This document shows positions 32,352-54,615 of a stretch of 64,000 bases of DNA, piece by piece. The notes beneath the pieces are model-generated. The model was given only the letters and a program-made list of their open reading frames with translations, did not search any database and was not told the origin of the DNA. Each line of letters begins with the position of its first letter. Position 1 is the stretch's first letter. This DNA comes from Candidatus Omnitrophota bacterium (GTDB lineage Bacteria > Omnitrophota > Gorgyraeia > Duberdicusellales > 4484-171): contig JAAEQW010000256.1 of the NCBI GenBank assembly GCA_024231025.1, forward strand, positions 66,954 through 130,953, given 5' to 3'. Position numbers and translations under genes: made by a program.

Positions 32352-32360
32352 GGTGGAAAA

Positions 32361-33338
32361 ATGAAAGATAAAATTGTACCGTTGGCGATCGGCATAATTC
32401 TTGCGGCAGTTGCCACATTTATGATTAAGTCATATTTGGATGAGCAAAAAAAAGAAATGATTCAGCAAACTCGCGAAACAGTGATCAGCATGCGCGAAAA
32501 TCAGTCTGCCGTGTTTGTTGCAAGGAGGGATATCCGCAAAGGCGTTCCCATTCAGGCTAGTTTAGTGGATACGGCAGTGCTTGATAAACGCAACGTTAAT
32601 CCAAAAGCAGTAAGGTATTTTAGTGAAATTGAGAATAAGTCAACAGCAAAAGCTATTCGTGCGGGTGAGCAAATCACAACCGATGCCCTAAGAACTACTC
32701 GCATAGAAGCCGGTGGTCCTGGTGGCGGTCCGGTTACTTTTTCGATGGTTATTCCCGAAGGCAAGCGGGCGGTTTCGGTTTCGGTTGATAACGTTGCTTC
32801 AATTGTGCATATGATGCGTCCCGGGGATCACGTTGACGTTTTTGCGATAATCGCTTTTCCTCTGCCGGGGCAGCAAGGCAAACAACTTATGAATATTCCT
32901 CTTTTTCAGGATGTGGAGGTTTTGGCAGTGGGCGACCAGTTTAGTGAATCCAAATTAGCCAAGGTTGGGTCAAGCATAAAAAAGCTAGTTAACGAGAAAA
33001 AGAAAGATGAAAAGAAAAAGAAAGCAGCTAATAACCCAGCGATTACCCTTGCCTTAGATCCTCAAGAGGCCAACATAATTTCTTTCGTTCAAGAAGAAGG
33101 CAAAGTAAGACTTGCTTTACGTTCGCCAAACGATACTAGTAAAGTTAATTACAGAGCGCAAGTTGCTCAACAGCAGGTGGCACCATTAGTTACTACGCAG
33201 TCGTTTTTTCAGTATTTAGCGGCTAATGGATTAGTTACTCTTCCTAAACCAAAACCAACAGCGCCACCAAAACCCAAAGGTCCTCAGGTCGAAATATATC
33301 GCGGCCAGGAGAAGGAGGTTAAAACACTTAGAAAATGA
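32361..33338 (+). CDS. cpaB: Flp/Tad pilus assembly protein CpaB/RcpC-like
   Basis: N-terminal TM then the SAF-like VARRDIRKGVPIQASLVD. Confidence 0.7.
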   Translation: MKDKIVPLAIGIILAAVATFMIKSYLDEQKKEMIQQTRETVISMRENQSAVFVARRDIRKGVPIQASLVDTAVLDKRNVNPKAVRYFSEIENKSTAKAIRAGEQITTDALRTTRIEAGGPGGGPVTFSMVIPEGKRAVSVSVDNVASIVHMMRPGDHVDVFAIIAFPLPGQQGKQLMNIPLFQDVEVLAVGDQFSESKLAKVGSSIKKLVNEKKKDEKKKKAANNPAITLALDPQEANIISFVQEEGKVRLALRSPNDTSKVNYRAQVAQQQVAPLVTTQSFFQYLAANGLVTLPKPKPTAPPKPKGPQVEIYRGQEKEVKTLRK

Positions 33339-34915
33339 GAAAAAAAACTATAATTACTCTTGGTATTATCGGATGTTTGCTTGGTGGTGTCTTAGGCCAT
33401 TCTCAGGATTTTATTGAAGAGATCACCCTAATTTCCGGAGAAACTGTTTCAGTACCGGTTTATTCCCCTAAGAAGGTGGGGGTTGCCGATCCTAATATTG
33501 CCGATATCGTAACCACAAGTGATAGGGAAGTTGTTTTAATCGGCAAAATGAAAGGAAGAACAAGCTTTTTTGTGAATGACAGCACCGGTGATTACACCTA
33601 TAAGGTGCAGGTTATTCCTGAAGATATGGATCATTTACTCAAACGTGTGCGCAGTATCCTTAAGGACATGAGCTTAAAGGACGTAAAAGTAAAACCAGTT
33701 GCCGACCAGGGTAAAGTTTTACTTATTGGAAGCGTGCGCACCGTAGAAGACAAAGAGCTTTTAGAGGTTGGTTTGGGGGAATTATTTCCTAAAGTAACCG
33801 ACTTGGTAAAGATCGAAGAAGCGGCTCTTGTTGAAATTTTAGTTGAAGTGTTAGAGATGAGCACCGGCGCAACCAAAGAACTTGGTTTTGTTCCGCCGCG
33901 AACGGTTACTTTTGCTGAAGCCGCCGTTCCTCCTGCTGGGATTTCAGCAACAAGTTTGGTAAGAATTGCTCCGCTGCAGCGTTCTGATGTATACAGTTGG
34001 AAGTGGGACATGCTCGAAAGCGAAGGAAAAGTAAAGGTTCTTTCACGTCCGCGGGTGATATGCCAGAGCGGTAAAGAAGCAGAAATTTTAGTTGGCGGCG
34101 AAGTGCCGATATTTACAACTTCGGTTGCTAGTGCCGGCGGAGAAGGAACAACAGTTGAATATAAGGAATACGGCATAAAGCTAAAGATCAATCCTACCGT
34201 AACCGCGACCGAAAGAGTTGAGTTGGGCTTGAAAATTGAGATAAGCGAACTAGGTGAGGCCGAATACATTGGTACAGCGCTTGACCCTACCGCCAGAGCT
34301 TATCCGATTAAAAAGAGAGATATCTCTACATCACTTCATCTTACCGATGGTTCGACTCTTGCTATTGGTGGGTTGATAAGACAAAAAACAAGCGAAGATT
34401 TAATCAAATTTCCTTGGTTATCTGAAGTCCCTGTTTTGGGTGCTTTTTTTCGTCATAAGAAAAGCGAAAGCGGTGAAGGTTCAACTGCAAAAGGCGACAC
34501 TGAACTTTACATAACCATTACGCCGAAGGTTGTTTACACTGCTGATCCTAAAAGCCTAGAAGAGAAGCGTGTGATCGCCCAAGAAGAAAAGTTTATTGAT
34601 AAGTACAAAAAGTCGGACATTCCCGAAGAGCTGCAAAATTATATTTTAGAAATTCAAAGAATGATTCTAGCTAATATTAGCTATCCTTCGGTGCTTGTTG
34701 GTACCGGATGGGAAGGCAATATTGCCTTAAGACTTACAATTGTAGAAACCGGAGAACTAAAAGAGGTGCAGGTTCTTAAAGCTTCAGGCTATAAGATTTT
34801 TGACGAGCAAGCCTTAAAGCTCGTTAACTCTTTAAAGTATGCTCCGTTTCCTTTTGATAAGCCGTTAGAAGAATTAAAAATTGATGTACCGATAGTTTAT
34901 CGCGAAGGAAATTAA
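33335..34915 (+). CDS. cpaC: Secretin (CpaC/RcpA-like) fused to a C-terminal TonB_C domain
   Basis: Secretin core LSRPRVICQSGKEAEILVGGEVPI. The C-terminal ~90 aa (YPSVLVGTGWEGNIALRLTIVETGELKEVQVLKASGYKIFDEQALKLVNSLKYAPFP) match the TonB C-terminal fold. Confidence 0.75.
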   Translation: MRKKTIITLGIIGCLLGGVLGHSQDFIEEITLISGETVSVPVYSPKKVGVADPNIADIVTTSDREVVLIGKMKGRTSFFVNDSTGDYTYKVQVIPEDMDHLLKRVRSILKDMSLKDVKVKPVADQGKVLLIGSVRTVEDKELLEVGLGELFPKVTDLVKIEEAALVEILVEVLEMSTGATKELGFVPPRTVTFAEAAVPPAGISATSLVRIAPLQRSDVYSWKWDMLESEGKVKVLSRPRVICQSGKEAEILVGGEVPIFTTSVASAGGEGTTVEYKEYGIKLKINPTVTATERVELGLKIEISELGEAEYIGTALDPTARAYPIKKRDISTSLHLTDGSTLAIGGLIRQKTSEDLIKFPWLSEVPVLGAFFRHKKSESGEGSTAKGDTELYITITPKVVYTADPKSLEEKRVIAQEEKFIDKYKKSDIPEELQNYILEIQRMILANISYPSVLVGTGWEGNIALRLTIVETGELKEVQVLKASGYKIFDEQALKLVNSLKYAPFPFDKPLEELKIDVPIVYREGN

Positions 34916-37056
34916 TGGCTCAAACCATTGTTTTGTTTAGTACCAAGGGAGGAACAGGTAAAACCCTGATTTCTGCCAATCTTGCCTTTAGCCTCGCTAA
35001 GCTTAAGAAAAAAGTTTTACTCATTGATGGCGATTTAGATGTTGTTGGCAATATGGCCTGGATGCTTAATGTCTCTCCAAACAGGTCTATGGCCGATGTT
35101 ATGTATCTTTTGAAAAGAAAGAAGGTGTTTGATATTGGCGAATATATCACAAAAAAATATCAAAATGTTCACTTTCTTCCCTGCATTCTTAAGCCTCAGC
35201 AAAGTTCGCATTTTGATCCCGATTTGATAAGAGAAGTTATTGAGCCGTTACGTGAAAATTATGACTACATAATTATTGATGGCGGAAAGGCTTTTAGTGA
35301 AAGTTTGATCAGATTTTTTGACGAAGCAAATCTATTTTCATTAATTGTTACACCGGATGTTATTTCGGTTTATCAAACCAAATGGGCATTGGATACATTA
35401 CAATCTTTGTATTTTCCTCTTAAAATGTTGAAAATTGTTCTAAACCGTGCCGAATCGCTTGCGAGCATAAGCTTGCAGGAGATAAAATTAGTTTTTCCTT
35501 GTGAAGTAATCGCTAAAGTTCCTTCCGAAGGTAAAACAGCGATGCTTTCGGTTAACAAGAAAGTTCTTCTAGTAAATGAATTTCCCTTTAGTAAGATAGC
35601 AGCTTCAATAAAGCAATTTGCTAAAGATTTAGTTGATCGATCAGATATTTTTCTTCAGCGTAAAGAGATAAAAACGATTAAAGGCGAATTCGCAAAGAAA
35701 AAAGATCTTTGGGAAAAGCAAGGCCTGAAAGGAAATTTGGAATCCGAACTCAAAGAAGACCAAGAGTATGACGAAATCTCAATGCTAAAGCAAAAAATCC
35801 ATCAAAAGTTAATTGAAAATCTTAATTTGAAAAAAATGGATTATGAGAGTTTTTCTGAAATCGGAAAAGCTAAAGAAATAAGAAAACGCGCCGAACGCCT
35901 TATTGGCGAATTTTTAGCCGGCGAAACACATTCTTTAATTGGCTCGGTCGAAACCAGAAAAAAGCTTACTCTTGAAATTATTGACGAAGCGCTAGGCTAT
36001 GGTCCGTTAGAAGATCTTCTAAAGAACCAAGACATAACTGATATTATGGTAAACAATAAAGATGAAATTTACATTGAAGAAAGAGGCAAATTACAGCTTA
36101 CCAGTAAAAGATTTGTTTCTAACGAACAGGTAAAAACAGTAATCGAACGAATTATAGCTCCGATTGGCCGGCGGATTGATGAAAGTTCTCCTTACGTTGA
36201 CGCGCGTCTTCCTGATGGATCGCGGGTTAACGCGATAATCTCTCCATTAGTTTTAACTGGTCCGACATTGACGATAAGAAAATTTAGAAAAGAGCGCTTT
36301 AAACTAAAAGAACTTATTGAATATGAAGCGTTAAGCGAAGACATGGGCAAATTTATTGAGGCGTGTGTTTTAGCACGAAAGAATATAATTGTTTCCGGTG
36401 GTACCGGAAGCGGCAAGACGACAGTGTTAAATATTTTGTCTTCTTTTATCCCTGACGATGAACGTATCATAACCATTGAAGATGCCGCAGAACTTAAGCT
36501 TGATCAGCGTCACTGGGTAAGACTCGAATCACGTCCGCCTAATATAGAAGGTAAGGGGGCAATCGCTATTCGGGATCTTTTTAAGAACACCTTACGAATG
36601 CGTCCGGATAGAATCATTGTTGGTGAGTGCCGCGGGGTTGAATCGTTAGACATGTTACAAGCAATGAATACCGGCCATGACGGCTCAATGACAACAATCC
36701 ATGCTAATTCTACCCATGATATTTTAACTCGTCTTGATTCAATGATTCTAATGAGTGGAGTGGAGTTGCCGCTGCGTGCGATACGTGAAATGATCGCTTC
36801 AGCAATTCACATCATTGTGCATACTCAGCGCCTAAGCGATGGAAGCCGAAAAGTTGTTCAGGTTACCGAATTAACAGAGCTTGACGATGATATGCATATA
36901 AGTCTTAAAGATGTATTCAAATTTAATCAAACCGGCCTTGGCGAAAATGGTGAAGTGCAGGGCTACTTTGGTCCTACCGGATATATTCCTTCCTTTTATG
37001 ATGAAATAAAGGTGAGGGGGATACCTCTTCTTGAAGAAATTTTCAAGCCTAAATGA
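34915..37056 (+). CDS. cpaF: Fusion of a ParA/MinD-like CpaE/TadZ domain to a CpaF/TadA secretion ATPase
   Basis: N-terminal deviant Walker A STKGGTGKT; C-terminal VirB11-like SGGTGSGKTT with Asp/His boxes. Confidence 0.8.
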   Translation: MAQTIVLFSTKGGTGKTLISANLAFSLAKLKKKVLLIDGDLDVVGNMAWMLNVSPNRSMADVMYLLKRKKVFDIGEYITKKYQNVHFLPCILKPQQSSHFDPDLIREVIEPLRENYDYIIIDGGKAFSESLIRFFDEANLFSLIVTPDVISVYQTKWALDTLQSLYFPLKMLKIVLNRAESLASISLQEIKLVFPCEVIAKVPSEGKTAMLSVNKKVLLVNEFPFSKIAASIKQFAKDLVDRSDIFLQRKEIKTIKGEFAKKKDLWEKQGLKGNLESELKEDQEYDEISMLKQKIHQKLIENLNLKKMDYESFSEIGKAKEIRKRAERLIGEFLAGETHSLIGSVETRKKLTLEIIDEALGYGPLEDLLKNQDITDIMVNNKDEIYIEERGKLQLTSKRFVSNEQVKTVIERIIAPIGRRIDESSPYVDARLPDGSRVNAIISPLVLTGPTLTIRKFRKERFKLKELIEYEALSEDMGKFIEACVLARKNIIVSGGTGSGKTTVLNILSSFIPDDERIITIEDAAELKLDQRHWVRLESRPPNIEGKGAIAIRDLFKNTLRMRPDRIIVGECRGVESLDMLQAMNTGHDGSMTTIHANSTHDILTRLDSMILMSGVELPLRAIREMIASAIHIIVHTQRLSDGSRKVVQVTELTELDDDMHISLKDVFKFNQTGLGENGEVQGYFGPTGYIPSFYDEIKVRGIPLLEEIFKPK

Positions 37057-37223: not shown

Positions 37224-38645
37224 TTGATGCATCGACAAAAAGCGAAATTAAAAAATTTAATTTTAAAATCTTTTAAAAAGAATCCTTATTTTGGTGTACG
37301 TAAGATCGCCAAAGATTTAAAAGAGAAACACAATATCTTTGTTTCAAAAAGCTATGTTCACAAAATTCTAACCCAACAAGAGCCCGATGCGCAAACCGGC
37401 TGTAAAAAAAGTATTCTCGCCTATAAGAAAAAACACCTTGATGACTGCGGAGCGTTTTTGTTGCGGGCGATAGATTCGCACCTGGGATTATTCAACAATC
37501 TAACTAGCCTATTGCAGCCACATTTTCCTAAGTTGCAAGCGAAACTCCTTAAGAAAATTATTGTTTTCTTTTCACTTTCTTCATTTTTAGGATACGACCT
37601 AAACCAGGCATCAGAAGAAAAAAGCCTGCTTAGGGCCGCGGATTTATATGTTTATCCAGCTCGAAATATAAAATACTTCCTAGATCAGTTGAATGATTGC
37701 AAGCCGACGATCAGCCTTGACAATTTTGCTAAAAGCTTAGTTTCGGTGGCAAGCGTGAAATTTTCTTTTGTAAATGGCACAAAAAGCTATTGTGATGGGA
37801 GTTTTTCTTGTTTTTGGGGTAAACCTGCATTTATTGATGAATTTTTTGTTCCTTATAGTTTGGCACAAAAGAGAGTAAAGGCGATAATAAAGAATAAAAT
37901 CATCATGATCAACTATACTAAGAGTTTTGACTATCTTTCGTCGTTAACCACGAGTTTTATTGATGGTTTAGCAAGCGGAATAAAAACAATCGAACTTCTC
38001 GACAAAAAAGGTAATGTTTTGGAGGAATTTACTCCACCTCCGGTGAAAATGTCTTTTTTGATTGGATATTACCCCCAAATTCTCTCTAAAGGGGTGGTTT
38101 TTTTGCGTAAATCAGCCCGTTTTAAGAAATTTGACGCAATAGATGGCGATATCCACTATATTTCGGCCCTGGCTAGATTTTTACAACCAAAAGGGAGCAA
38201 AGGGCTTATATTAAATAGTGTACTTATTAACCGAAAACGTCAAAGTTTGCCTTCGTGGGGACTGCTTACCGATAAGCGGTCAAATTTCACTCTTTTTTTA
38301 AAAAGGTATCTTAATTCTTGGCCGTATATGGATAAGGTTTTTAAGGAGGAGATGGAGTTAGTTGAGAAGTTTTACACGCAAAGCAATAAAACAAAGGAGT
38401 TGGGCGATTTTGTGCCCGAGCACGTAGTTTTGAGTAAATTTGACGATTTCAAGGGAATTGGCGCTATTTTGGCGGCTGTTTTCAGGGATCGAGTGGCTCG
38501 GGTTGAATTGAGGGGCAAAAAGGGCCAAGTTGCCACCGGTAAAGATTATTTGCGAATTAAACTCTTAAGATTCTCTCCGGCATTTAAGAGGAAGTTCAAC
38601 AAATTCTCATTCTCAATTGATAAGCGCAATGTTTTCCTCATCTAG
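37224..38645 (+). CDS. Hypothetical protein with an N-terminal HTH-like region; candidate transposase-like cargo between two inverted-repeat elements
   Basis: A 473-aa ORF flanked by element copies B and C. Only the N-terminus (FGVRKIAKDLKEKHNIFVSKSYVHKIL) resembles transposase HTH modules. Confidence 0.45.
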   Translation: MMHRQKAKLKNLILKSFKKNPYFGVRKIAKDLKEKHNIFVSKSYVHKILTQQEPDAQTGCKKSILAYKKKHLDDCGAFLLRAIDSHLGLFNNLTSLLQPHFPKLQAKLLKKIIVFFSLSSFLGYDLNQASEEKSLLRAADLYVYPARNIKYFLDQLNDCKPTISLDNFAKSLVSVASVKFSFVNGTKSYCDGSFSCFWGKPAFIDEFFVPYSLAQKRVKAIIKNKIIMINYTKSFDYLSSLTTSFIDGLASGIKTIELLDKKGNVLEEFTPPPVKMSFLIGYYPQILSKGVVFLRKSARFKKFDAIDGDIHYISALARFLQPKGSKGLILNSVLINRKRQSLPSWGLLTDKRSNFTLFLKRYLNSWPYMDKVFKEEMELVEKFYTQSNKTKELGDFVPEHVVLSKFDDFKGIGAILAAVFRDRVARVELRGKKGQVATGKDYLRIKLLRFSPAFKRKFNKFSFSIDKRNVFLI

Positions 38646-38671
38646 AAACTGTTGCGTTTTTCAACAGTTTC
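38645..38671 (+). terminator. Stem-loop GAAACTGTTG-CGTTTTT-CAACAGTTTC just after the stop codon; no T-tract follows
   Basis: 10-bp perfect stem overlapping the TAG stop. Confidence 0.3.
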
Positions 38672-38746
38672 TGATTACGGAGATTGGAGAAAGATTACAA
38701 CGATTAGAAACATTGGTAAATGGTGATTAGGATCAATAAATTGGCT

Positions 38747-38871
38747 AAAAACGAAAAACTAAGAACGTAGAGCCATAATTCAAAATTGTTCCGGAAACAT
38801 TACAATTTATTACATTTTCAGTAATTTTTAATTTCACGCTATGGCTTTGCGTTTTGCGCTTTTAGCTTTGC
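38747..38871. repeat. Hairpin-forming inverted-repeat element, copy C
   Basis: GCTAAAAACGAAAAACTAAGAACGTAGAGCCATAATTCAAAAT with the inverse arm CACGCTATGGCTTTGCGTTTTGCGCTTTTAGC. Confidence 0.65.
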
Positions 38872-39014
38872 GCTAACGTGATATTTTCAATTGTACAAGA
38901 ATTATAAAAATATCCGCTGAAAACGTTTACAATTTAGGTGTGTTTTTTTGAATTTCGCCTTGCTTTTGCTTAAGAGTATATGGTATATTGAAATGGTACC
39001 GAGATTAAGAAATG

Positions 39015-39150
39015 GGGGGCGGCGAAAAGGCAATCTTAAACTCGCCCTAGAGTTTAAGCGCGCAAAGCCACGGGTCCTATAAGGGCAAAAGATCAGGACG
39101 GCCGGGCTACCGAAGGTCTCTTAGAGGCGAGGTGGGCCGGTTTTTGTATT
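39015..39150 (+). promoter_or_regulatory. c-di-GMP-I (GEMM) riboswitch-like leader, copy 1, upstream of the pilin operon
   Basis: GGCAA..P1 stem-loop..CGCGCAAAGCCACGGGTCC..GGCCGGGCTACCGAA matches the Vc2 core (GGGCAAACC-P1-GACGCAAAGCC-P2-GCGGGGUUACCGA). A promoter-like TTGCTT..TATATT lies upstream. Confidence 0.65.
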
Positions 39151-39163
39151 ATAGAGGTAATTA

Positions 39164-39339
39164 TGTTAATAAGGCGCAAAAAATTGTGTGCACAAACAGT
39201 TCTTGAGTATATTCTCTTGACGGCGGCGGCAGTAATTGCCATTGCGGGGTTCGGAAAGTTTTTTAATATAATTGTAGGAGATTCCGGTGCATTAACCCGG
39301 CATTTTAATGTGATGAAGCAAAGTATAACCGGACAATAA
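39164..39339 (+). CDS. Small pilin-like protein with a class-III-like signal (58 aa; not in the ORF track)
   Basis: RBS AGAGGT; N-terminus MLIRRKKLCAQTVLEYILLTAAAVIAIAG. Confidence 0.55.
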
Positions 39340-39342
39340 AGT

Positions 39343-39498
39343 ATGAAGCGCAGAACAAAAACTCAAAGCATCGTTGAATACGTAATGCTGTTTATGATTG
39401 TGTCAGCAGCAATTATGATGACTTATAAATACCTGAACCGCTCGATGAACGCTCGCTTAAAACAGGTTCAGGAAGAATTAGAATACGAAGCATACTAA
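39343..39498 (+). CDS. Small pilin-like protein (51 aa; not in the ORF track)
   Basis: N-terminus MKRRTKTQSIVEYVMLFMIVSAAIMM. Confidence 0.5.
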   Translation: MKRRTKTQSIVEYVMLFMIVSAAIMMTYKYLNRSMNARLKQVQEELEYEAY

Positions 39499-39694
39499 TG
39501 ATTTTTTAACAGGGAGGTATTAAAATTCCAAATAACAAATCCCAAATCACAAACAAATCACAATGATTAAAATTCAAAACAGGAAAAGACACGTTTTTGG
39601 TCATTTGATATTGGAATTTGGTAATTGTTTGTGATTTGTTTTTTGGAGCTTGTATTTTTTGACAATATGATTTCTTAATGGGGGAGGTGAAGGG

Positions 39695-39931
39695 ATGTTG
39701 ATACGCAAAAAAGCGCAAGGAATTTTGGAGTATACCCTGCTTTTAGGGGCAATCATCGCGGTGGTCGTTACGGTAATGATGAAAAAGGATAGCGGTGTAG
39801 CCGCTAGGGTTAAAAAGACTTATGAAAAAGCAGGGACGGCGATTGATAAAACAAATAAAGACTTAAACGTTGGCGTTTTTGCACCACCGGCGAGTACTGT
39901 TCCCGGAGAAGTAACCGTGCGGCGGCGCTGA
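39695..39931 (+). CDS. Pilin-like protein with a class-III-like signal
   Basis: RBS GGAGGTGAAGGG; N-terminus MLIRKKAQGILEYTLLLGAIIAVVV. Confidence 0.75.
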   Translation: MLIRKKAQGILEYTLLLGAIIAVVVTVMMKKDSGVAARVKKTYEKAGTAIDKTNKDLNVGVFAPPASTVPGEVTVRRR

Positions 39932-39975
39932 TGATGATTAGTATATGGTAATTACGTTTTTAAGGAGGTGAAGCA

Positions 39976-40167
39976 ATGTTGATACGCAAAAAAGCACAGG
40001 GAATTTTGGAGTACACCCTGCTTTTAGGGGCAATCATCGCGGTGGTTGTTACGGTGATGATGAAAGAAGGGGGCGTAGCAAGTAAAGTTTCAGATACTTA
40101 CGAGAAAGCAGCGACGGCAATTGAGACGACAACCGATGATTTAACGTCGGGTGTTTTTGGGCCTTGA
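39976..40167 (+). CDS. Pilin-like protein, a paralogue identical to the previous one over its N-terminal 30 aa
   Basis: N-terminus MLIRKKAQGILEYTLLLGAIIAVVV. Confidence 0.75.
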   Translation: MLIRKKAQGILEYTLLLGAIIAVVVTVMMKEGGVASKVSDTYEKAATAIETTTDDLTSGVFGP

Positions 40168-40206
40168 TCGATATATAGTAACCATGTTTTTAAGGAGGTG
40201 AAAGAA

Positions 40207-40617
40207 ATGTTATTACGAAAAAAAGCACAATCAACCGCGGAATATGCAATTACCATTGGTTTAGTAGTTGCGGTTGCCGCAGGCATCATGCAAGTTGCCC
40301 TAAAGAATGGAATGCGTCAAAAGAGCAAGGAAGCTAATGATATTTTGCGCCGAGCAGGTACCGCTGCGATGGGGAGTATGGACGTTGACACGACTATTTT
40401 TGGTGGTGCGTCAACGGGTCTTAACCCTGATGCACAAGGGGCGTTTAACGTTTACAACGAAAGTGCGCGCTCAACAGTGGTTGACCAAGAAAGCTATCTT
40501 GATAAAACTATTCTTGAGAAGGGCGGAGCCGAAAAGAAACTTCAACACCGTGAAACGGTAACTACGTCGATGGATGTCGATAATTTTGAAAATGTAAATA
40601 AAGATACTACGCCATAG
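40207..40617 (+). CDS. Pilin-like protein with a longer C-terminal domain
   Basis: N-terminus MLLRKKAQSTAEYAITIGLVVAVAAG. ATG 40207 has the same RBS spacing as its paralogues; the ORF track begins at GTG 40198. Confidence 0.7.
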   Translation: MLLRKKAQSTAEYAITIGLVVAVAAGIMQVALKNGMRQKSKEANDILRRAGTAAMGSMDVDTTIFGGASTGLNPDAQGAFNVYNESARSTVVDQESYLDKTILEKGGAEKKLQHRETVTTSMDVDNFENVNKDTTP

Positions 40618-40654
40618 AAAATGAATAATGAAACCTAAAAAGGGGGGTGAAAAA

Positions 40655-41143
40655 ATGTTTTTACGCAAACAAAGAAAGTCGCAATCTATCTTAGAGTACG
40701 CTCTTTTATTGGGGGTAATTGTTGCCGCGATTTTGATTATGCAAACATTCGTTAAAAGAGGTTTTCAAGGGCGAATGAAGGATTCCGCCGATAGAATCGG
40801 CGGCGGTGAAACATTTTCAACTAGTGATACCGCAATTATTAGCACCAATACGATGACTTCTGACCAAGTTATTGTTGACGTTAAGGGCACCGCAGGTGCA
40901 GATGGTGCGATGCATGGTTTACTCACCGATGCGATTGGTGCAAAGCTTGCCGATCAAGCCGTAGTCGATATCGTAGGAAAGGGTGCGGCCGCTGCGAACG
41001 CACGTTTTGGTGGTGACATGACTTCCGAGACATTGCAGAAAACTTCTGATGCAACCAGTGAAGCTTATCGTCAAGCGGATTACACCGAGGCTGTAGTTGA
41101 AGATTTTGAGGATGACGACATTATTGACGCATTTGGTGACTAA
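40655..41143 (+). CDS. Pilin-like protein with a C-terminal domain
   Basis: N-terminus MFLRKQRKSQSILEYALLLGVIVAAIL; the likely start is the internal ATG 40655. Confidence 0.7.
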   Translation: MFLRKQRKSQSILEYALLLGVIVAAILIMQTFVKRGFQGRMKDSADRIGGGETFSTSDTAIISTNTMTSDQVIVDVKGTAGADGAMHGLLTDAIGAKLADQAVVDIVGKGAAAANARFGGDMTSETLQKTSDATSEAYRQADYTEAVVEDFEDDDIIDAFGD

Positions 41144-41222
41144 ATAGGCCATTGCTTGCGTATAGAGCTTTAGCGGTTTTTGAGTGTGCGCTATGCGCGC
41201 GTGAGCAAAAGGGTAAAGGATT

Positions 41223-41591
41223 ATGAAACTTAGAAAAGGACAGAGCATTTTGGAGTATGCCGTTTTACTTGCGGTGATTATTGCGGCACTGGCGGTTATG
41301 CAGACTTACATTAAGCGAGCCTATCAGGGTCGCCTAAAGCGTGAGGCGGATAATTTGGGCCAGCAATATTCTCCGGGGCACACAGTTACATTAAACGCAA
41401 CTGTGACCGAAAGTGATTCGGTAACCTATAGTGGTGGCAAAACCGACCCTGATGATTCTGATCTTATCGATGGAGAAGTGGAAGTTCCCGATGGGGTAAG
41501 CGTAACCTTTACCAAAACCAGCACGCGTACCGAACGCAGAGAAGGAATAGATTCTTACGCTACAGAGTTTGACGACGAAGATGACGATTAA
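41223..41591 (+). CDS. Pilin-like protein with an acidic C-terminus
   Basis: N-terminus MKLRKGQSILEYAVLLAVIIAALAV. Confidence 0.7.
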   Translation: MKLRKGQSILEYAVLLAVIIAALAVMQTYIKRAYQGRLKREADNLGQQYSPGHTVTLNATVTESDSVTYSGGKTDPDDSDLIDGEVEVPDGVSVTFTKTSTRTERREGIDSYATEFDDEDDD

Positions 41592-41663
41592 GATAAGGTT
41601 GTAGCGATTGCATGCAGGTATAATCTTAGTAGATTATACCTGAAGATTATACCAGGAGGACGA

Positions 41664-42170
41664 GTGAGTATGTTTTTGCGCAGGGGCCATAGTGTGATTG
41701 GGTGGATGCTGGTCTTTTCAGTGTTAATTTCGGTTACGGCCCTATTTAGAGCATCTTTAAAGCGCGAAATCGATAAAAAAGCGCGCGCTACCTCTGACTA
41801 TATTTTCTGGACCGGTTGGAAAACCGCAGACGGGACCGAAAATATGGAAGTTCCCCGCGATGACGACATTTTCAAACGCGATAAAAATTCAAAAGCAAAA
41901 ATTGTTGCCCATAACGAACAGAAACAATCTGTCGTCGAACGGAAAAAAGATTTTGTCACGATCGATTACAGTAGAGATCTTGATGGTAAACTGCATTCTG
42001 ATGTGACGAGATATAAAAGGGGTATTAATTATAACTATGAGAATGAGGACGCAAGAAGGATAATTTCTGCAGGAACCGGGAAGAATCAAGAGTATCTTTT
42101 AGATCGATTTGATCTTAATCATGATAAGTTTAAAATGGATGCTTCAGAGGACTTTGACACTGATGAATAG
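41664..42170 (+). CDS. Minor pilin / pseudopilin-like protein
   Basis: N-terminal hydrophobic helix MLVFSVLISVTALF following a basic stretch; lies in the pilin array. Confidence 0.4.
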   Translation: MSMFLRRGHSVIGWMLVFSVLISVTALFRASLKREIDKKARATSDYIFWTGWKTADGTENMEVPRDDDIFKRDKNSKAKIVAHNEQKQSVVERKKDFVTIDYSRDLDGKLHSDVTRYKRGINYNYENEDARRIISAGTGKNQEYLLDRFDLNHDKFKMDASEDFDTDE

Positions 42171-42966
42171 TAAATTTAAAAAAAGAGTTAGGGCGCAAGC
42201 TATAGCGGAGCTGGCAATTATGGGCAGTTTGATTATGGTTGCCTTCAGTATGATTTTATCTTATGGCCATCGCTTAGACAGAATACAAAACTTAAAAATG
42301 AAAACGTTCAGAGAGGCTCTGCGCAAAGCTTATTATAAAAACAGCACAGTAAACGTTACCAAGCGGGTCGATAGCCGTTCGGTGGATTTATTTAATTTTG
42401 GTAAGGGTCAGCCTTCAACCGCGCAGGCATCGGCGGCGGTAATGTGGCACAAAGGTATGCCGGGTGCGCAAGACACAAATGATGCTGCATTTAGCTTTTA
42501 TAGCATAAATGGTGTATATATTGGAGAGTACGGGTTCGCTGAGACTACTGGGCTTCCTAGGTACCACAAAACAGTTATTGGTGCAACTGGGGCAGAGTCT
42601 GAAATTCATAGTCCGGTGAGCGTTTATCGTGAAGAGTCAAAAAGGTATAGTTTTTATTCTGGAAATAAAGAGAAATCGGAAAGCGAGGATGGCATAGAAA
42701 ACGTTCGCTATGCTGATTTGCGTGACGATCTTGATATAAAAGTTAAAACTCGTTTTGATGCTGCCAAATACGATTCACGATTGGGTCCGGATGATCCCGA
42801 GCAGGAGTCACCTAAATATACACAGCATAGAAAATATGATTTAAAACAAACCGCGGTCTTTGATCCTTTGCTTGATGATGATACAATAACTTACAAAGAT
42901 GTAGAGGATGTCGATAGTGATTATCATGGTATTCATGTTGAAAGAACTCGGCATACGCCAAATTAA
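42163..42966 (+). CDS. TadE-like pseudopilin
   Basis: N-terminus MNSKFKKRVRAQAIAELAIMGSLIMVAF resembles the TadE/TadF N-terminal motif. The start overlaps the previous stop (ATGAATAG). Confidence 0.5.
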   Translation: MNSKFKKRVRAQAIAELAIMGSLIMVAFSMILSYGHRLDRIQNLKMKTFREALRKAYYKNSTVNVTKRVDSRSVDLFNFGKGQPSTAQASAAVMWHKGMPGAQDTNDAAFSFYSINGVYIGEYGFAETTGLPRYHKTVIGATGAESEIHSPVSVYREESKRYSFYSGNKEKSESEDGIENVRYADLRDDLDIKVKTRFDAAKYDSRLGPDDPEQESPKYTQHRKYDLKQTAVFDPLLDDDTITYKDVEDVDSDYHGIHVERTRHTPN

Positions 42967-43199
42967 TGGCAACAAAAATTTTATAAAAATTGGATTGTAA
43001 TTTGTAGTTTGTATATTATAATTTGTTTGTAATTTGTAATTTGTAGTTTGTAAGTTTTAAGTCCGGAAAATTCCGTAAAACGGGAAATCCTTAATTCTTA
43101 TCACTTACGACTTACGACTTATAACTTTACTCACGGGAGGTAAATATCAGTAAAAGAAGGCACAGTAAAAAAGGTTTCAAGAGGTGGGGTCAATCCATT

Positions 43200-44825
43200 T
43201 TGGGTTTTGTTTTTGCCTTTATCGCTTTAATGCTTCTTGTAATCGGCCTTACTCGCATTTGGATATGGTTTAACGCTAATTATGCCGGTCGTGCGGTTGG
43301 TTATCAAAATAGTCGGCTTGTTGCCGGAGGTGGAGAGTTAAGATCGGAAGGTGTTGGCAGTAATGCGAAGTTAGCAGAAGCCTATATGAAGGAAAGTATT
43401 CATGGCGAGCAGGGTTACTACGGCACAGAAGGTTACCTGAAAGACTTCAATCGATTTTTTTTAACTAAGGACTGGGTATTTAGGGGGGTTTCTAGCGGTA
43501 CAATTGATGACGGTCTAAGTGGTGGAATCACCGAAGCTGAGATTAATGATTGTTGTGAGGGTTGTTGTTCGGCTACCTCCTATGATAATGATATCTGCTC
43601 TTGTAAGGATCCCGGTGATTGCGGTGTTGGCGATGATTATGATAGTAATTGCGTTTGCCATGCTCATTGTGCCTGTGATGCTTCGGTTGCGGCCCAAATT
43701 TGGCTCTTAGAGAATCAAGCAGGGCTTTTAATTGAACAGGGAAACTCCCTAGAGGATAATGCAAGGTCATTAAGAAAGGCGGCTGGTGAGTGTGATGACC
43801 CCTGGGAGTTGTGTTTTTGGGGTGATTGGGGCAAAACTCCTCGCGAGCTAAGAAGTGCAGCCGCTGAATTAGACGATATGGCCTTAGAATTGTTTCTTGA
43901 GGCTGGCGCTTGGAAGACTACGTTTCATGAGGGTGATAATCCGGCGCATAATGATCAAGGCTACTATACTTTTTCTGATTATCTAGATCATAGAGCTACA
44001 GTAGATGAAAGTATAATAGGCAAAGGCGGAATCACTGATAGGATGCGCGAATGTTGCAAAATAGATGACGCTCCGTCACAAAAAGAATGCATTAATGCTG
44101 CTCGAACCGAAGCAGGAGATAGCTGTGATAGTTTAGTTTACAACTATGAGCTTGAACTAGTTGGCGAGCAAAGAAAATATCTTGAAAAATTGAGTGATGC
44201 AAGAGAGATCCTTGAGGATTTAGAGCCGGCAGTAACTGAGTGTGGCGTGAGTGCTGCTAATGGGTGTAGATCTGCATGCATGGGCAAGTGTACCACTTTT
44301 TGCCGTGATGCTGAAGGTGTTCCCTATGAATGTGTAGATGACGCCTGTTATCGAAATTGCCTCGGTCCGGTTGATGAGTGCACCCACGGTGCTAATTGCT
44401 ATGAGACGTGTTACCCTATTAGAAAAGAGCAATGTTGCCGTGACTATTGCGGTCCGAATTGTAGCGACGGTAATGGGTGGGGAAGAAATTGCGATAGTGC
44501 AGCTCCAATTGAAGCAAGTAGGCAGCATGAAAATGGCTTTATCGGCGGTTTAATTGGTGATACTGATCCCTCTGATAGTGCTGAGGAAATTATTGGAGCT
44601 TTTATTCCCGCGGCAAAGGATCATCTTGAAACAATCATTAGCGCGAAAGAGGCAATAGCGACCTGTTGCGCACAAGAGGCAGAAGATGCGGAAGAGGCAC
44701 AAGAGTTTGAAATCAATGAATTTAGTGAACAAGTAGAGTGTATAAGTGAAAAATTAGGCAACGCGTTGCTTTCTCCGGAGACATTAAAAAAAGGAGAGTA
44801 TGACGAATTCATGGGTGAGGAGTAA
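43200..44825 (+). CDS. Cys-rich (>40 Cys) large protein with a pilin-like N-terminal TM segment; candidate pilus-associated adhesin or minor pilin
   Basis: The frame is open upstream to 43146 and encodes ..KKGFKRWGQSILGFVFAFIALMLLV after a GGAGG RBS (43136-43140), but there is no ATG; the candidate starts are ATC 43146 or TTG 43200. Cys clusters include CCEGCCSATSYDNDICSCKDPGDCG. Confidence 0.6.
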   Translation: MGFVFAFIALMLLVIGLTRIWIWFNANYAGRAVGYQNSRLVAGGGELRSEGVGSNAKLAEAYMKESIHGEQGYYGTEGYLKDFNRFFLTKDWVFRGVSSGTIDDGLSGGITEAEINDCCEGCCSATSYDNDICSCKDPGDCGVGDDYDSNCVCHAHCACDASVAAQIWLLENQAGLLIEQGNSLEDNARSLRKAAGECDDPWELCFWGDWGKTPRELRSAAAELDDMALELFLEAGAWKTTFHEGDNPAHNDQGYYTFSDYLDHRATVDESIIGKGGITDRMRECCKIDDAPSQKECINAARTEAGDSCDSLVYNYELELVGEQRKYLEKLSDAREILEDLEPAVTECGVSAANGCRSACMGKCTTFCRDAEGVPYECVDDACYRNCLGPVDECTHGANCYETCYPIRKEQCCRDYCGPNCSDGNGWGRNCDSAAPIEASRQHENGFIGGLIGDTDPSDSAEEIIGAFIPAAKDHLETIISAKEAIATCCAQEAEDAEEAQEFEINEFSEQVECISEKLGNALLSPETLKKGEYDEFMGEE

Positions 44826-44840
44826 TGAGGTGACTTTATT

Positions 44841-46259
44841 ATGATGGTATTTTTTTCAAAAAACAAAGCTAATTATCGCAAGGGTCAGATTTTTCCCTTT
44901 TTACTTGCCCTGGTTGTTGTGATTATGATTATGTTAATGATTACAGTTAATTTGGGTCGTATTGGTGTGTTTAAAACCGATGTGTCAAATGCTGCTGATG
45001 CCGGTGCATTGGCCGGTGCAAGTGTATTAAGTGCGACTTTGCTTGAAATGGGTCTTAAGAATGACAGTATTTTTGGTTATGCGTTAACAATGTTTGGCTG
45101 TATTATTGTTGCGATAATTGCTTTTATGTATGTTGCAGCAATTGCTTGTGCGATTTCGCTTTTAATAACAATGTGGTCGGAATACTTTATAGTCAAAGGG
45201 GCCGGTGTTGTTGGTTGGGGAAACGCTAAAAAAACAGCGATCCAATATGCTTTTCAGAATGCCGGTATTGATGAACCGCGGCCCAGCTTTAAGCATTTTT
45301 TAGTTAAGGGCTGCGGGTTCTCTGAAGCCGAAGTCACCGAACTTCCACCGAATACAATTTCTGATCGTTACGATGAATATATGAACCAAAAATCTCGTCG
45401 TTCCCGTGACCACGGACGCAGTGGTTTTGGTAGATTTTTGGCAGACGATGAAAATGGTTTTTGGCGCCACACTATTGCTCCGGGTGATCGTCCGCCTCAC
45501 AAAGTGCACGCTGAATACGCTTGGAATAAAGATGGCACCAATTGCTGGGATGACGGTATTTGTAATAACCAGCCATTTGATAGTTGCCCCACTAGAGATC
45601 GTACTGCTGACTCAAGTGATAATTCAATATCACCTGAGTCAGCCTCAGATTGCATGGATAATTACGACTACAGCGTTAAGGTTGAAGTTAGCGGTGTAAA
45701 AATGTATGGAATTAAAATGTGGAGTTTTTTGGAGGGTGCCGAGCTGGTTACTTGTATGATCAACTATGTTTTAGGTAAGATAAACTGGCCGAGTTGGCTG
45801 GAGTGGCTGGGTAGTATTTTAAAGTTTATTATGTCGATATTTGGTTGGTTTCTTAATAAACTAGTTGCTACAATTTCTCCTTCAGGTTTTCGGCTAATGG
45901 GCGGTGATATAGTACAAACTGCCAAAAGTCCCTTAACAGTAACGGTTATAAAAAGAACAAGAGGTGGGAATGTTGGCTTCTGGAATTTTGTCTATGGTAA
46001 TAGCGATAATGAAGTTAGGGCAAGATCATCCGCGGTTGCCGGCTGGAATGAAAATCCTAATAATCCCGGTTTTGATTTTGAAGGGTGCGGTTGTCGAAGC
46101 ATTATTCCCACAGGAGGGTATACAAATTGTAAGGGGGGGGACTTAAAAGTTACCGGATTGTGTAATATACTCGTTGGTCTTCTTAAGGGTGATGCCGATT
46201 GGCAATATATGAATACAAAATATCATTTATTTGAAACTCGTTTAACTGCGGCGCAATAA
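44841..46259 (+). CDS. TadG-like pilus-associated protein
   Basis: N-terminus RKGQIFPFLLALVVVIMIML...SNAADAGALAGASVLS resembles the Tad_N/TadG N-terminal module. Confidence 0.5.
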   Translation: MMVFFSKNKANYRKGQIFPFLLALVVVIMIMLMITVNLGRIGVFKTDVSNAADAGALAGASVLSATLLEMGLKNDSIFGYALTMFGCIIVAIIAFMYVAAIACAISLLITMWSEYFIVKGAGVVGWGNAKKTAIQYAFQNAGIDEPRPSFKHFLVKGCGFSEAEVTELPPNTISDRYDEYMNQKSRRSRDHGRSGFGRFLADDENGFWRHTIAPGDRPPHKVHAEYAWNKDGTNCWDDGICNNQPFDSCPTRDRTADSSDNSISPESASDCMDNYDYSVKVEVSGVKMYGIKMWSFLEGAELVTCMINYVLGKINWPSWLEWLGSILKFIMSIFGWFLNKLVATISPSGFRLMGGDIVQTAKSPLTVTVIKRTRGGNVGFWNFVYGNSDNEVRARSSAVAGWNENPNNPGFDFEGCGCRSIIPTGGYTNCKGGDLKVTGLCNILVGLLKGDADWQYMNTKYHLFETRLTAAQ

Positions 46260-46261
46260 TT

Positions 46262-47110
46262 ATGGATATAAAAAAGTTAGCCGTGATTTTAAGTTTGTTT
46301 ATTGTTGGTTCGGTTTTTGCGGTGGACTTCCCTATTCCTCAGCCGCCACAAGGGCAAATGATTGACACCCATAGTATTGCTATGGGGGGGATTAATGTTA
46401 CCTCTTATGTTTATAGAAGCAGCAAAAAAAAGAGTGAGTTGGTTGATTACTACAAAGAGTTGTTTGATAAAAAAGAATTCAAACTCATTTTAGATCAAAA
46501 AGATTCCTCACGCGACAAGCGGCTTCTGCGTTATCGGCGCGAAGATTTAGTGATGACAGTTGCGATTTTGCCCAAAGATGGCGAAACTGAAGTTGTAATC
46601 GCAAAGTATATTCAACCTGAAGGAACTGCACCGCCGGAGGAGCGTAAAATGTCTTTTCAGGAAATGCTTGGGCAAATGCCAAAAGAAGACGAGGCCGGGG
46701 GTGATTTGGATGTTGTTCCGCGACCGCCGGATAGTGTGCGCATTCATTCTTATGTTCGAGGAAATGTGGCAGTTATTATTTATAATAGCGCTATTTCAGT
46801 AGAATCGTTAAGGGATTTTTACGATAATCAAATGGGATTGCACGGTTGGAAAAAAAATAAAGATATCGCAACCGGCGAGGTGGCACGTTCTTATAATACT
46901 GAAAAAGGTTTAAAAAAGGCATCGCCGATGGGAATGAGCTTTGCTTCAGATGTAAATGTTGGACAACTTATGCAGGGCGGTCGCAAGTTGCTTTTTCATG
47001 GACGGATGGGTAGTGCCGATATCACCCTATTAAATGCCGGTTCTGAAGATGAACCGCTAACGATAGTAACGATTAATTACAGAGAAGACGAAGAAATATA
47101 CGGAGAGTAG
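46262..47110 (+). CDS. Secreted hypothetical protein
   Basis: Signal peptide MDIKKLAVILSLFIVGSVFA; tightly linked to the TadG-like gene. Confidence 0.5.
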   Translation: MDIKKLAVILSLFIVGSVFAVDFPIPQPPQGQMIDTHSIAMGGINVTSYVYRSSKKKSELVDYYKELFDKKEFKLILDQKDSSRDKRLLRYRREDLVMTVAILPKDGETEVVIAKYIQPEGTAPPEERKMSFQEMLGQMPKEDEAGGDLDVVPRPPDSVRIHSYVRGNVAVIIYNSAISVESLRDFYDNQMGLHGWKKNKDIATGEVARSYNTEKGLKKASPMGMSFASDVNVGQLMQGGRKLLFHGRMGSADITLLNAGSEDEPLTIVTINYREDEEIYGE

Positions 47111-47111
47111 C

Positions 47112-47306
47112 ATGTTGCCAAGAAAGAAAAAATTATCACAAGCTGTAATTGGCTATGCTATTTTATTCTGCCTTATAGTATCAGCTTTGCTTATTGTTGG
47201 CCGCTACGTGAGAAATGCTTTTTCCGGTAGAGTCCGCCAAGCCGGTGATTCATTCGGCAGCGGCGAAGTATACGCCCCCTACGGTCCCGATGCCAGTAGG
47301 GATTAG
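47112..47306 (+). CDS. Small pilin-like protein
   Basis: N-terminus MLPRKKKLSQAVIGYAILFCLIVSALLIV. Confidence 0.55.
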   Translation: MLPRKKKLSQAVIGYAILFCLIVSALLIVGRYVRNAFSGRVRQAGDSFGSGEVYAPYGPDASRD

Positions 47307-47447
47307 AAATAATTATAGAAACCATGCCAGGAAAACGTCGAACCATAAGATTAAAGAATTATAATTACGCCTAAAATGGGATATATTGTGTAACAATATG
47401 CGCGTATAATCGCAAATATTTATTTGGAAGGATAAAAAATAATTGTA

Positions 47448-47675
47448 GGGGCACAGCGTGCTGTGCCCTCAATAAATATGGTAAAATTATTTATGATGAA
47501 TTGTGGATTTAATCCGTAATATCCATTGAATAATTAATATCGTAGGGGCGAATAATTATTCGCCCGTAAAAACGTCTTCCTTACGTAATTAAAATCCGTA
47601 AATATATTATCGATAATCCCATAAATTGGATTAATGATGATGAAAACAATAAAGAGGGCACAGCACGCTGTGCCC
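47448..47675. repeat. Internally deleted RAYT3 remnant bounded by two REP3 palindromes
   Basis: REP3 at 47448-47469 and 47655-47675. A 5' fragment is homologous to 22576-22608, and a 3' fragment (47595-47654) is homologous to 22887-22951. A further palindrome GGGCGAATAATTATTCGCCC lies at 47545-47564. Confidence 0.75.
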
Positions 47676-47847
47676 CTACAGATAATCTCATTAAATAATT
47701 ATAAATCGGTTTATTTTTATTGCCCTTCTTTCACGTTCTTAATTACTCCATTCCCTGTTTTTGCTTTACATCCCACCTCTTCAAAAGTATAATGTAATAA
47801 GACTTGAGGGCTGTTGCAAAATACAATAGCCAATTAATAAATAACCT

Positions 47848-54527: not shown

Positions 54528-54532
54528 GTATG

Positions 54533-54615
54533 GTAGCGAAGGGCAAACCTCGAGTAATCGAGTGGCGCAAAGCCACGGGCCCCGAATGTTTTGGGGCAGC
54601 CGGGTTGTGGGTATC
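54533..54615 (+). promoter_or_regulatory. c-di-GMP-I (GEMM) riboswitch-like leader, copy 2, upstream of the 2102-aa gene
   Basis: AGGGCAAACC-TCGAGTAATCGAG (P1 with a GUAA loop) - GGCGCAAAGCC - ACGGGCCCC..GGGGCAGCCGGGTT. Confidence 0.65.

Follow-up and report, generated by a model that had tools for sequence, protein, structure and literature searches.

The window analysed here is a stretch of 64,000 nucleotides (nt) from a Candidatus Omnitrophota bacterium (contig JAAEQW010000256.1 of assembly GCA_024231025.1), and it carries, inside a Tad-like locus, a plus-strand array of small pilin-like genes. Seven of these genes are consecutive, a further pilin-like or pseudopilin gene follows them, and a solo copy lies downstream, just before the genes for the Tad platform. 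They are listed below with their positions in the window, the product length in amino acids (aa) and the N-terminal motif, in which a slash marks the putative cleavage site between residues -1 and +1.

39163 to 39339, plus strand: pilin-like gene 1, 58 aa, MLIRRKKLCA/QTVLEY, matches PF04021 at 16.9 bits (NCBI MCP4652931.1)
39343 to 39498, plus strand: pilin-like gene 2, 51 aa, MKRRTKT/QSIVEY, member of a highly conserved subfamily
39695 to 39931, plus strand: pilin-like gene 3, 78 aa, MLIRKKA/QGILEY, matches PF04021 at 18.8 bits, strong Shine-Dalgarno sequence GGAGGTG
39976 to 40167, plus strand: pilin-like gene 4, 63 aa, MLIRKKA/QGILEY, matches PF04021 at 19.4 bits
40207 to 40617, plus strand: pilin-like gene 5, long type, 136 aa, MLLRKKA/QSTAEY
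40655 to 41143, plus strand: pilin-like gene 6, long type, 162 aa, MFLRKQRKS/QSILEY
41223 to 41591, plus strand: pilin-like gene 7, long type, 122 aa, MKLRKG/QSILEY
41670 to 42170, plus strand: pilin-like or pseudopilin gene, 166 aa, MFLRRG/HSVIGW, without Gln at +1 or Glu at +5, no Pfam family
47112 to 47306, plus strand: solo pilin-like gene, 64 aa, MLPRKKKLS/QAVIGY, with Gly rather than Glu at +5

In the products of all eight copies (genes 1 to 7 and the solo gene), the leader is basic and 6-10 residues long, Gln stands at +1 and Tyr at +6, and about 20 uncharged residues come next. Their -1 residues are, in gene order, Ala, Thr, Ala, Ala, Ala, Ser, Gly and Ser. An earlier interpretation made without database searches (the sequence-only reading) had ascribed a small -1 residue, Gln at +1 and Glu at +5 to every copy. 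The first two were present in 8 of 8, whereas Glu at +5 was found in seven, the exception being the solo copy. Orthologues of this solo gene lie just before TadB in other loci, mostly with Glu or Asp at +5, and the window version may be a degenerate or specialised copy. The same reading counted at least nine pilin-like genes, which is correct because, beside the eight copies, the TadE-like (42163) and TadG-like (44841) genes described below also encode Gln at +1, the gene at 41670 having His there. Its start for the first gene, 39164, had to be moved to 39163.

Most array genes are preceded by a good Shine-Dalgarno sequence (for example GGAGGTG and AAGGAGGTG), on which basis gene 5 starts at 40207 and gene 6 at 40655, as against 40198 and 40628 for the longest open reading frames (ORFs). 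With the starts used here, exact NCBI matches were found for all ten products that were looked up, namely the eight pilin-like proteins, the TadE-like protein and a PilD-type peptidase (MCP4652931-37, -39, -43 and MCP4652909); the pilin-like and TadE-like products are named 'hypothetical protein' there, in a Candidatus Omnitrophica metagenome-assembled genome, where their contig measures 142,758 nt. Motif scans of the six-frame translation of the 64-kb window found no further matches. The type IVa motif, G/F(M)-T-L-x-E, was likewise absent from the window, and the array has Gln at +1 and lacks Pro22. The 196-nt gap between genes 2 and 3 (39499-39694) can fold into a long imperfect hairpin, which scored no better than shuffled sequences (z -0.8). 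Genes 3 and 4 are a recent tandem duplicate, sharing 102 nt at 93% identity. Recent local amplification as the source of the array as a whole was considered and rejected: recent duplication is confined to genes 3 and 4, and orthologues of the remaining paralogue types follow the same order in other genomes.

This order was traced in 80 related loci, defined as carriers of full-length relatives of the fused ATPase that is encoded upstream of the array (55-63% identity) and labelled mostly as Omnitrophota, with about 19 assigned to Planctomycetales or Planctomycetia, one to 'bacterium' and one to Deltaproteobacteria. The whole gene order is conserved among them. A typical array has 5-8 genes, and in the closest loci the same succession of paralogues recurs: three short types of about 58, 50 and 63 aa in turn, three long types and a solo copy before tadB. 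Gene 5, for instance, has orthologues in the same position in five loci (L055, L057, L058, L061 and L080 in our numbering), and the gene at 41670-42170 has homologues, again in the same position, in 5 loci.

An unbiased scan of the 80 loci and the window (1.39 Mb) asked for any four residues followed by E-[YF], 14 uncharged residues, a nearby start codon and one basic leader residue; Glu at +5 was thus demanded, and the frequency of Gln at +1 was left unconstrained. Of the 353 N-termini returned, all but one (352) lay on the operon strand. Gln occupied +1 in 338 of the 353 (96%), and the -1 residue was Gly in 210 (60%), Ala in 127 (36%) and Ser in 10 (3%). In a logo anchored on the Gln, Lys or Arg filled positions -2 and -3 in about 75%, +2 was Ser in 76%, +5 Glu in 96%, +6 Tyr in 92% (Phe in 7%) and +7 Ala in 45%, Val in 22% and Thr in 10%. 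Leaders were mostly about 4-10 aa long across the family, and a second conserved block, M-Q-x-Y-x-K-R-G-x-Q-G-R, followed the helix.

A HMMER search with the window alignment against 1.84 billion cluster representatives returned 3400 proteins at E ≤ 1e-3, with Gln at +1 in 148 of the 149 top relatives, and only Omnitrophica among the matches that carried an organism name. The most conserved type was the 51-aa subfamily of gene 2, which is 60-85% identical to many metagenomic clusters. In this subfamily (the window copy and such relatives as P0252, P0240 and P0271), Thr or Cys stands at -1 in the proteins nearest to the window copy and Ala or Gly in the others; Thr or Cys at this position would be unusual for a prepilin peptidase site. 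A tblastn search of plasmids with a consensus-like pilin gave no match, probably through low-complexity masking.

Annotated Flp pilins from plasmid Tad loci of Arthrobacter, Sinorhizobium and Photobacterium read EKG/ATAVEY, ESG/ATAIEY and ERG/VTAIEY. Counted from a cleavage site after Gly, this register (G/xxxxEY) has Glu at +5 and Tyr at +6, as does that of the array. Indeed, when a profile of 39 Omnitrophota N-termini was compared by hhalign with a profile of only these three annotated Flp pilins, the two aligned over 45 columns with a probability of 90.9% (E 1.1e-6), superposing the -1 residue, Glu5 and Tyr6. The view that the array does not follow the Flp pattern was thus contradicted by the shared register, by Gly at -1 in 60% of copies phylum-wide, by the profile alignment and by Tyr at +6, which is a hallmark of Flp pilins missing from archaeal Epd pilins (PMC3875500). 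Five of the eight copies (51-78 aa, no Pro at +22) also have the dimensions of short pilins, and the copies of 122-162 aa do not.

Curated family models gave an ambivalent answer. PF04021 (Class_IIIsignal) matched three of the eight window copies at 16.9-19.4 bits, below its gathering score of 23.7, and gave no match for the other five. Neither Flp_Fap (PF04964; E ≤ 10) nor the TadE model matched any window copy, and the TadE model also failed to match the TadE-like protein. Among the 149 relatives, PF04021 matched 56 at E ≤ 0.1 and Flp_Fap 30 (best E 2.8e-5); precomputed PF04964 assignments existed for a few relatives, and names given by the Joint Genome Institute (JGI) were either 'Flp pilus assembly pilin Flp' or 'UPF0333 family'. 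An NCBIfam scan of ten proteins yielded chance-level matches plus weak ones to TIGR04205, a class III model. The hidden Markov model check that the sequence-only reading had proposed yielded, for the window copies, weak PF04021 matches and none to PF04964 or TadE. Its comparison with the archaeal QxSxExxxL class III signal is supported by these sub-threshold matches, by the JGI name 'UPF0333' and by the non-Gly -1 residues, which the literature treats as an exception found in archaea (PMC4471445); type IV pilin signals as a whole are, however, covered by the generic name 'class III signal peptide' (PMC4471445). From sequence comparison, the most fitting place for the family appears to be among the Flp-type (type IVc) pilins, as a lineage-specific branch. 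The earlier interpretation is partly right (prepilins, a Tad locus, an Epd-like flavour) and partly wrong ('not Flp').

AlphaFold2 predicted the 51-aa pilin of gene 2 as one continuous helix (residues 5-50; predicted local distance difference test score, pLDDT, 86) and the 122-aa pilin of gene 7 as a 44-residue helix (residues 5-48) followed by a long beta-hairpin (residues 54-109; pLDDT 72). The Caulobacter Tad pilin PilA has been solved as a 45-residue continuous helix (PMC10710030), and the predicted 51-aa helix fits that structure.

Around the array, Pfam matches delineate a Tad-type system, which bears out the proposal that the array sits inside a Tad-like locus: RcpC, a secretin, a ParA-like domain joined to a T2SSE ATPase, TadG and two T2SSF proteins surround it. 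The remaining genes of the locus are as follows.

31437 to 32351, plus strand: peptidyl-prolyl isomerase (Pfam)
32361 to 33338, plus strand: RcpC/CpaB (Pfam)
33335 to 34915, plus strand: secretin of the RcpA/CpaC type with a C-terminal TonB_C domain (Pfam; TonB_C E 4.6e-14)
34915 to 37056, plus strand: TadZ-like ParA domain fused to a CpaF ATPase (Pfam; 713 aa)
37224 to 38645, plus strand: conserved protein containing a helix-turn-helix (HTH), between the ATPase and the array, weak HTH_21 match
42163 to 42966, plus strand: TadE-like minor pilin, 267 aa, MNSKFKKRVRA/QAIAEL, homologues in 30 loci, syntenic
43200 to 44825, plus strand: Cys-rich protein between the TadE-like and TadG-like genes, 541 aa with 36 Cys, no Pfam family, syntenic in 9 loci
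44841 to 46259, plus strand: TadG-like protein, 472 aa, YRKG/QIFPF, PF13400 Tad (E 1.8e-7), syntenic in 24 loci
46262 to 47110, plus strand: conserved 282-aa protein with an N-terminal hydrophobic signal, no Pfam family, found in 13 loci
47848 to 48690 and 48687 to 49559, plus strand: platform genes TadB and TadC, one T2SSF domain each

The upstream half of this locus (31437-37056) keeps its synteny in 68-80 of the 80 loci. A TonB_C domain on an RcpA/CpaC-type secretin is an unusual addition for a Tad secretin. The fusion of TadZ (ParA/MinD) to CpaF is full-length in nearly all 80 related loci, and the two are separate genes in the plasmid Tad loci inspected. The label 'TadE-like' rests on position and motif because the Pfam TadE model does not match. 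We considered the ORF at 37224-38645 as a transposase interrupting the locus and rejected this, as the corresponding place in two other loci (L058, 12809-14533; L022, 13365-15320) is taken by larger homologues that share its N-terminal HTH; its product is a possible regulator of the locus. After the ATPase, these two loci also have a 113-aa ORF that is absent from the window. Elsewhere in the window, IS200-like Y1 transposase domains are encoded by three ORFs (7972-8691, 21174-21887 and 22638-23000), in two of which the domain is weak or partial.

A single A24 peptidase was found in the window, and it lies outside the locus.

16048 to 16866, plus strand: PilD-type prepilin peptidase (A24_N_bact and Peptidase_A24 domains)

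Pfam thus confirmed the predicted PilD-type enzyme some 23 kb away, the gene ending 22.3 kb upstream of the array. Its neighbours are shikimate dehydrogenase (aroE) and chorismate synthase (aroC), both Cys-x-x-Cys pairs and both catalytic Asp motifs are intact, and NCBI names it 'prepilin peptidase' (MCP4652909.1). Searching the 80 loci by tblastn with PilD returned no A24 peptidase, and two annotated TadV queries returned no TadV. The latter is a weak negative because the same queries missed the window's own PilD; a scan for the GxGD catalytic motif, added to compensate, found the window PilD alone across the 1.39 Mb. Since the locus holds no Tad-specific peptidase that we could detect, we infer that the housekeeping PilD might process the array prepilins, a proposition that we regard as evenly balanced. 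In published systems, PilD has been proposed to process KilP, the major pilin of the Myxococcus Kil system (PMC12075869), and was allowed in an early MacSyFinder model of Tad (PMC6668835).

The array is preceded by a predicted regulatory RNA responsive to cyclic di-GMP (c-di-GMP).

39019 to 39114, plus strand: c-di-GMP-I riboswitch aptamer (Rfam RF01051, 42.5 bits; gathering score 35), with 48 nt between its end and gene 1
39101 to 39146, plus strand: terminator-like hairpin and U-run, the predicted expression platform (-26.5 kcal/mol, z -2.8), which uses the 3' strand of the aptamer

The Rfam threshold was also reached at the same position in three other loci, and the P1 helix covaries among the four. 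A covariance model trained on the window and these three loci detected the aptamer in 24 sources, comprising 23 related loci and the window (L055, 6951-7080; L014, 15327-15458; L006, 14647-14785; and 20 further loci), always on the plus strand and 44-160 nt ahead of the first pilin gene. Sources with at least three pilin genes carried the element in 20 of 47 cases, and the search found none inside any array. In the window fold, a downstream complement that is followed by the U-run is available for pairing with the aptamer's 3' strand (CCGGGYUACC), and an equivalent hairpin and U-run, with compensatory changes, formed in about six of the eight other loci folded. Because the aptamer's 3' strand can alternatively form the terminator, high c-di-GMP should turn pilin expression on; we favour, with some reserve, this antitermination ON architecture over the opposite direction of switching. 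A scan of 38600-47900 for sigma-70 promoters and terminators gave nothing above shuffled sequences and missed the riboswitch terminator itself.

Further c-di-GMP-I class aptamers were observed downstream. One (54532-54612) ends 40 nt before a 2102-aa ORF (54653-60961), and a tandem pair (61090-61221 and 61528-61647) precedes an ORF that is open from about 61773 to the window end (at least 742 aa); the first of this pair is an RF03167 GGC variant at 59.8 bits, barely over the gathering score of 59. Upstream of another giant ORF, at the start of the window (474-7727, 2417 aa), no riboswitch was detected within the window. The arrangement looks like a riboswitch regulon spanning the pilus and giant proteins. 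A word search of two Omnitrophota genome papers found no mention of riboswitches.

We conclude that the array very probably encodes the prepilins of a Tad (type IVc, Flp-type) pilus or secretion apparatus that is conserved across Omnitrophota. In the mechanism we propose, the N-terminal helix would insert each precursor into the inner membrane, and a prepilin peptidase, probably the housekeeping PilD-type enzyme, would cleave after the small residue at -1 (Gly, Ala or Ser), just ahead of Gln at +1, a site placed there because of the Flp register. The fused TadZ-CpaF ATPase would then polymerise the mature subunits on the TadB/TadC platform, the subunits would leave via the RcpA-type secretin, and the c-di-GMP-I riboswitch would gate transcription of the array. 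By analogy, the TadE-like, Cys-rich and TadG-like proteins probably form a tip or priming complex, and, on the model of the Kil system, the adapters as well as the major subunit would come from the short pilins.

Several observations weigh against this conclusion. No window copy reaches the gathering score of PF04021 or PF04964, and Flp_Fap gave no match at E ≤ 10. Gly stands at -1 in one of eight window copies, and both PilD- and TadV-type enzymes are generally described as requiring it (PMC4471445), which is why cleavage after Ala, Ser or Thr is putative here. The Gly7 of the Flp motif (...IEYGLI...) is replaced by Ala, Val or Thr, where annotated Flp examples have Gly or Ala, and three copies (122-162 aa) greatly exceed canonical Flp pilins in length. 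Searching PDB sequences with profiles of the full-length and N-terminal alignments returned nothing meaningful, and Foldseek found no PDB match at E ≤ 0.001 for either AlphaFold model, an elongated helix with or without a hairpin being a poor query. The TadV search was insensitive, and a peptidase gene could lie elsewhere in the genome.

Three other explanations were weighed. The basic short leader, Gln at +1 and Glu at +5 all recur in the Epd pilins of Methanococcus maripaludis (PMC3875500), and the array could accordingly be read as archaeal-type (Epd/UPF0333, Class_IIIsignal) pilins distinct from Flp, perhaps served by an EppA-like peptidase or representing an ancestral state retained from the archaeal donor of Tad systems. 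PF04021 is the only pilin Pfam model that touches window copies and the commonest weak match among the relatives, the TIGR04205 matches and 'UPF0333' labels point the same way, a -1 residue other than Gly has been called an archaeal trait (PMC4471445), and Tad itself has been traced to Epd-like pili (PMC6668835). We nevertheless consider this reading unlikely. The near-constant Tyr at +6 has no Epd counterpart (PMC3875500), the N-termini align in register with Flp pilins, and every PF04021 match in the window is sub-threshold. The machinery is that of a bacterial Tad system, with secretin, RcpC and TadZ, and no EppA- or TadV-like gene was found in the locus. Omnitrophota TadB and TadC group with those of Bdellovibrionales and not at the base of Tad (PMC10066038), and Gln at +1 with Glu at +5 also occurs in a Bacillus Tad-like locus. 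The Epd side of this comparison rests on the Pfam model and the literature, with no archaeal Epd sequences included.

Slightly less probable still is that the products are pseudopilins of a secretion machine, a type II-like piston exporting or displaying the adjacent giant proteins. The locus has been described as a 'secretion system' generally found ahead of Omnitrophota giant genes (bioRxiv 10.1101/2023.11.21.568195), the 2102-aa ORF and the further open frame of at least 742 aa lie downstream here, the many paralogues and tip-like gene set recall multi-pseudopilin systems, and aptamers before the array, the giant ORF and the next ORF suggest co-regulation. Against this, the link between filament and export is itself putative, the components are of Tad type, the short pilins fit an all-helical Tad subunit (PMC10710030), and the Tad complex of V. 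archaeovorus has been interpreted as an attachment or predation pilus (PMC10066038); the two roles are also compatible, as the Kil pili of Myxococcus illustrate (PMC12075869). That the genes encode generic small single-pass membrane proteins, unprocessed by any prepilin peptidase and alike at their N-termini through paralogy only, is scarcely credible. Such proteins would account for the failure to reach any curated threshold, the frequent non-Gly -1 residue and the lack of a dedicated peptidase in the locus, but not for Gln at +1, Glu at +5 and Tyr at +6 staying near-invariant at a fixed leader spacing in 353 copies that otherwise diverge; the genes moreover lie exclusively inside Tad loci, on the operon strand, and their profile matches Flp pilins.

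Beyond the Tad prepilin assignment, we advance a more speculative proposal, which we regard as possible and no stronger: a c-di-GMP riboswitch regulon may jointly switch on a multi-pilin Tad filament and the neighbouring giant surface proteins, the Flp-type pilins may have kept an Epd-like signal (basic leader, Gly, Ala or Ser at -1, Gln at +1) that is cut by the housekeeping PilD despite non-Gly -1 residues, and the N-terminal Gln may become pyroglutamate and not be N-methylated. If true, pilins of a diderm machine for predation or attachment would mature in the archaeal manner, which this bacterial lineage would have either preserved or re-evolved.

The uncultured, ultra-small bacteria of the Omnitrophota are thought to be predators or parasites, and the foremost candidates for mediating host contact are their Tad locus and the giant genes beside it. 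Small 'hypothetical' genes gain an identity here as Flp-type prepilins, with a defined putative cleavage motif and ordered paralogue classes, enabling consistent annotation of about 3400 clusters (50% identity) that are now unnamed or inconsistently named and giving proteomics a predicted mature N-terminus. Riboswitches before both the array and giant genes offer a testable link from second-messenger signalling to the attachment apparatus; this link and the missing TadV are the points most worth experiment.

Among known systems, the array most resembles the bacterial Tad Flp pilins (PF04964) such as Aggregatibacter Flp1 and Caulobacter PilA, with which it shares a tad locus, a small -1 residue, Glu5-Tyr6, a hydroxyl residue at +2 and the lack of Pro22 (PMC10710030, PMC3244431) and, for the copies of 51-78 aa only, very short subunits predicted to be all-helical. 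The Omnitrophota leader is short (typically about 5-10 aa) and basic (Lys or Arg at -2 and -3), whereas the textbook Flp leader has 13-26 aa and an acidic residue near the site; +1 is Gln where Flp has Ala or Val, and about 40% of copies carry Ala or Ser at -1, unlike the Gly of Flp. Also unlike Flp systems, the array comprises 6-10 paralogues, among them forms of 100-160 aa with a predicted beta-hairpin, the locus has no tadV and TadZ is fused to CpaF. Several of these features recall the Epd pilins of M. maripaludis (DUF361/UPF0333), which combine a 5-13 aa leader with Gln at +1 and Glu at +5 and have neither Tyr at +6 nor the Flp motif (PMC3875500), and which likewise comprise several small paralogues (about 55-65 aa when mature) together with larger ones (PMC3875500). 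Their hosts, however, are archaea with EppA, a FlaH-like partner and no secretin, whereas secretin, RcpC and TadZ mark the Omnitrophota system as the Tad machine of a diderm bacterium. Tad has been inferred to descend from Epd-like archaeal pili, with Tad and Epd as sister groups (PMC6668835), a published view that the motif fits.

Gram-positive bacteria offer a further parallel. On Bacillus cereus plasmid pJ1_1 (L084, 9973-10727), three nearly identical tandem genes of 67-68 aa, annotated 'hypothetical protein', read NEDS/QLSSEN and are followed by WxL-domain surface proteins; by their sequence features they are apparently unannotated Flp-like pilins. They resemble the array as tandem small genes beside CpaF, TadB and TadC, with Ser at -1, Gln at +1 and Glu at +5, and the pJ1_1 and Gram-positive Flp-like pilins differ from it in lacking Tyr at +6, in their longer acidic leader and in a monoderm host with no secretin (PMC3244431). 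The combination of Gln at +1 and Glu at +5 is thus not a new principle, being known from archaeal Epd and Gram-positive Flp-like pilins.

The Kil predation pilus of Myxococcus xanthus has a major Flp pilin, KilP, Flp 'adapter' pilins KilK and KilO, and TadE/F/G-like tip complexes (PMC12075869). As in Kil, one Tad machine is here accompanied by many pilin genes of varied size in a lineage for which a predatory or host-attached lifestyle has been proposed, and the major pilin is probably cut by the general PilD and not by a locus peptidase; the TadE/F/G-like tip proteins of Kil are disulfide-rich, which the 36-Cys protein (43200-44825) recalls. Kil pilin genes are spread over several clusters, whereas those of Omnitrophota form one ordered array.

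At the level of regulation, the 5' leader of the Clostridioides difficile pilA1 pilin operon likewise combines a c-di-GMP aptamer with a competing terminator, in that case a class II element that is switched ON by antitermination (PMC6366702), and Bc2 of Bacillus thuringiensis is a class I ON switch of the same aptamer class as the Omnitrophota element (PMC6366702). The Omnitrophota element differs from pilA1 in its class I aptamer, its Tad (type IVc) array and its uncultured phylum, and more pilus with more c-di-GMP is only predicted there.

Within Omnitrophota, Tad loci are a recognised trait, described in a paper that leaves their pilins undescribed (PMC10066038), and a 2023 preprint on giant genes describes the locus with a Rotamase_2 peptidyl-prolyl isomerase, rcpC, gspD/E/F homologues and small class III-signal genes (bioRxiv 10.1101/2023.11.21.568195). 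Because of that description the existence of the array is already on record, and the motif detail and paralogue order given here are refinements of it. Our additions are the ordered paralogue subfamilies, the finding of no TadV-type peptidase in any locus, and a riboswitch with an overlapping terminator in 24 sources.

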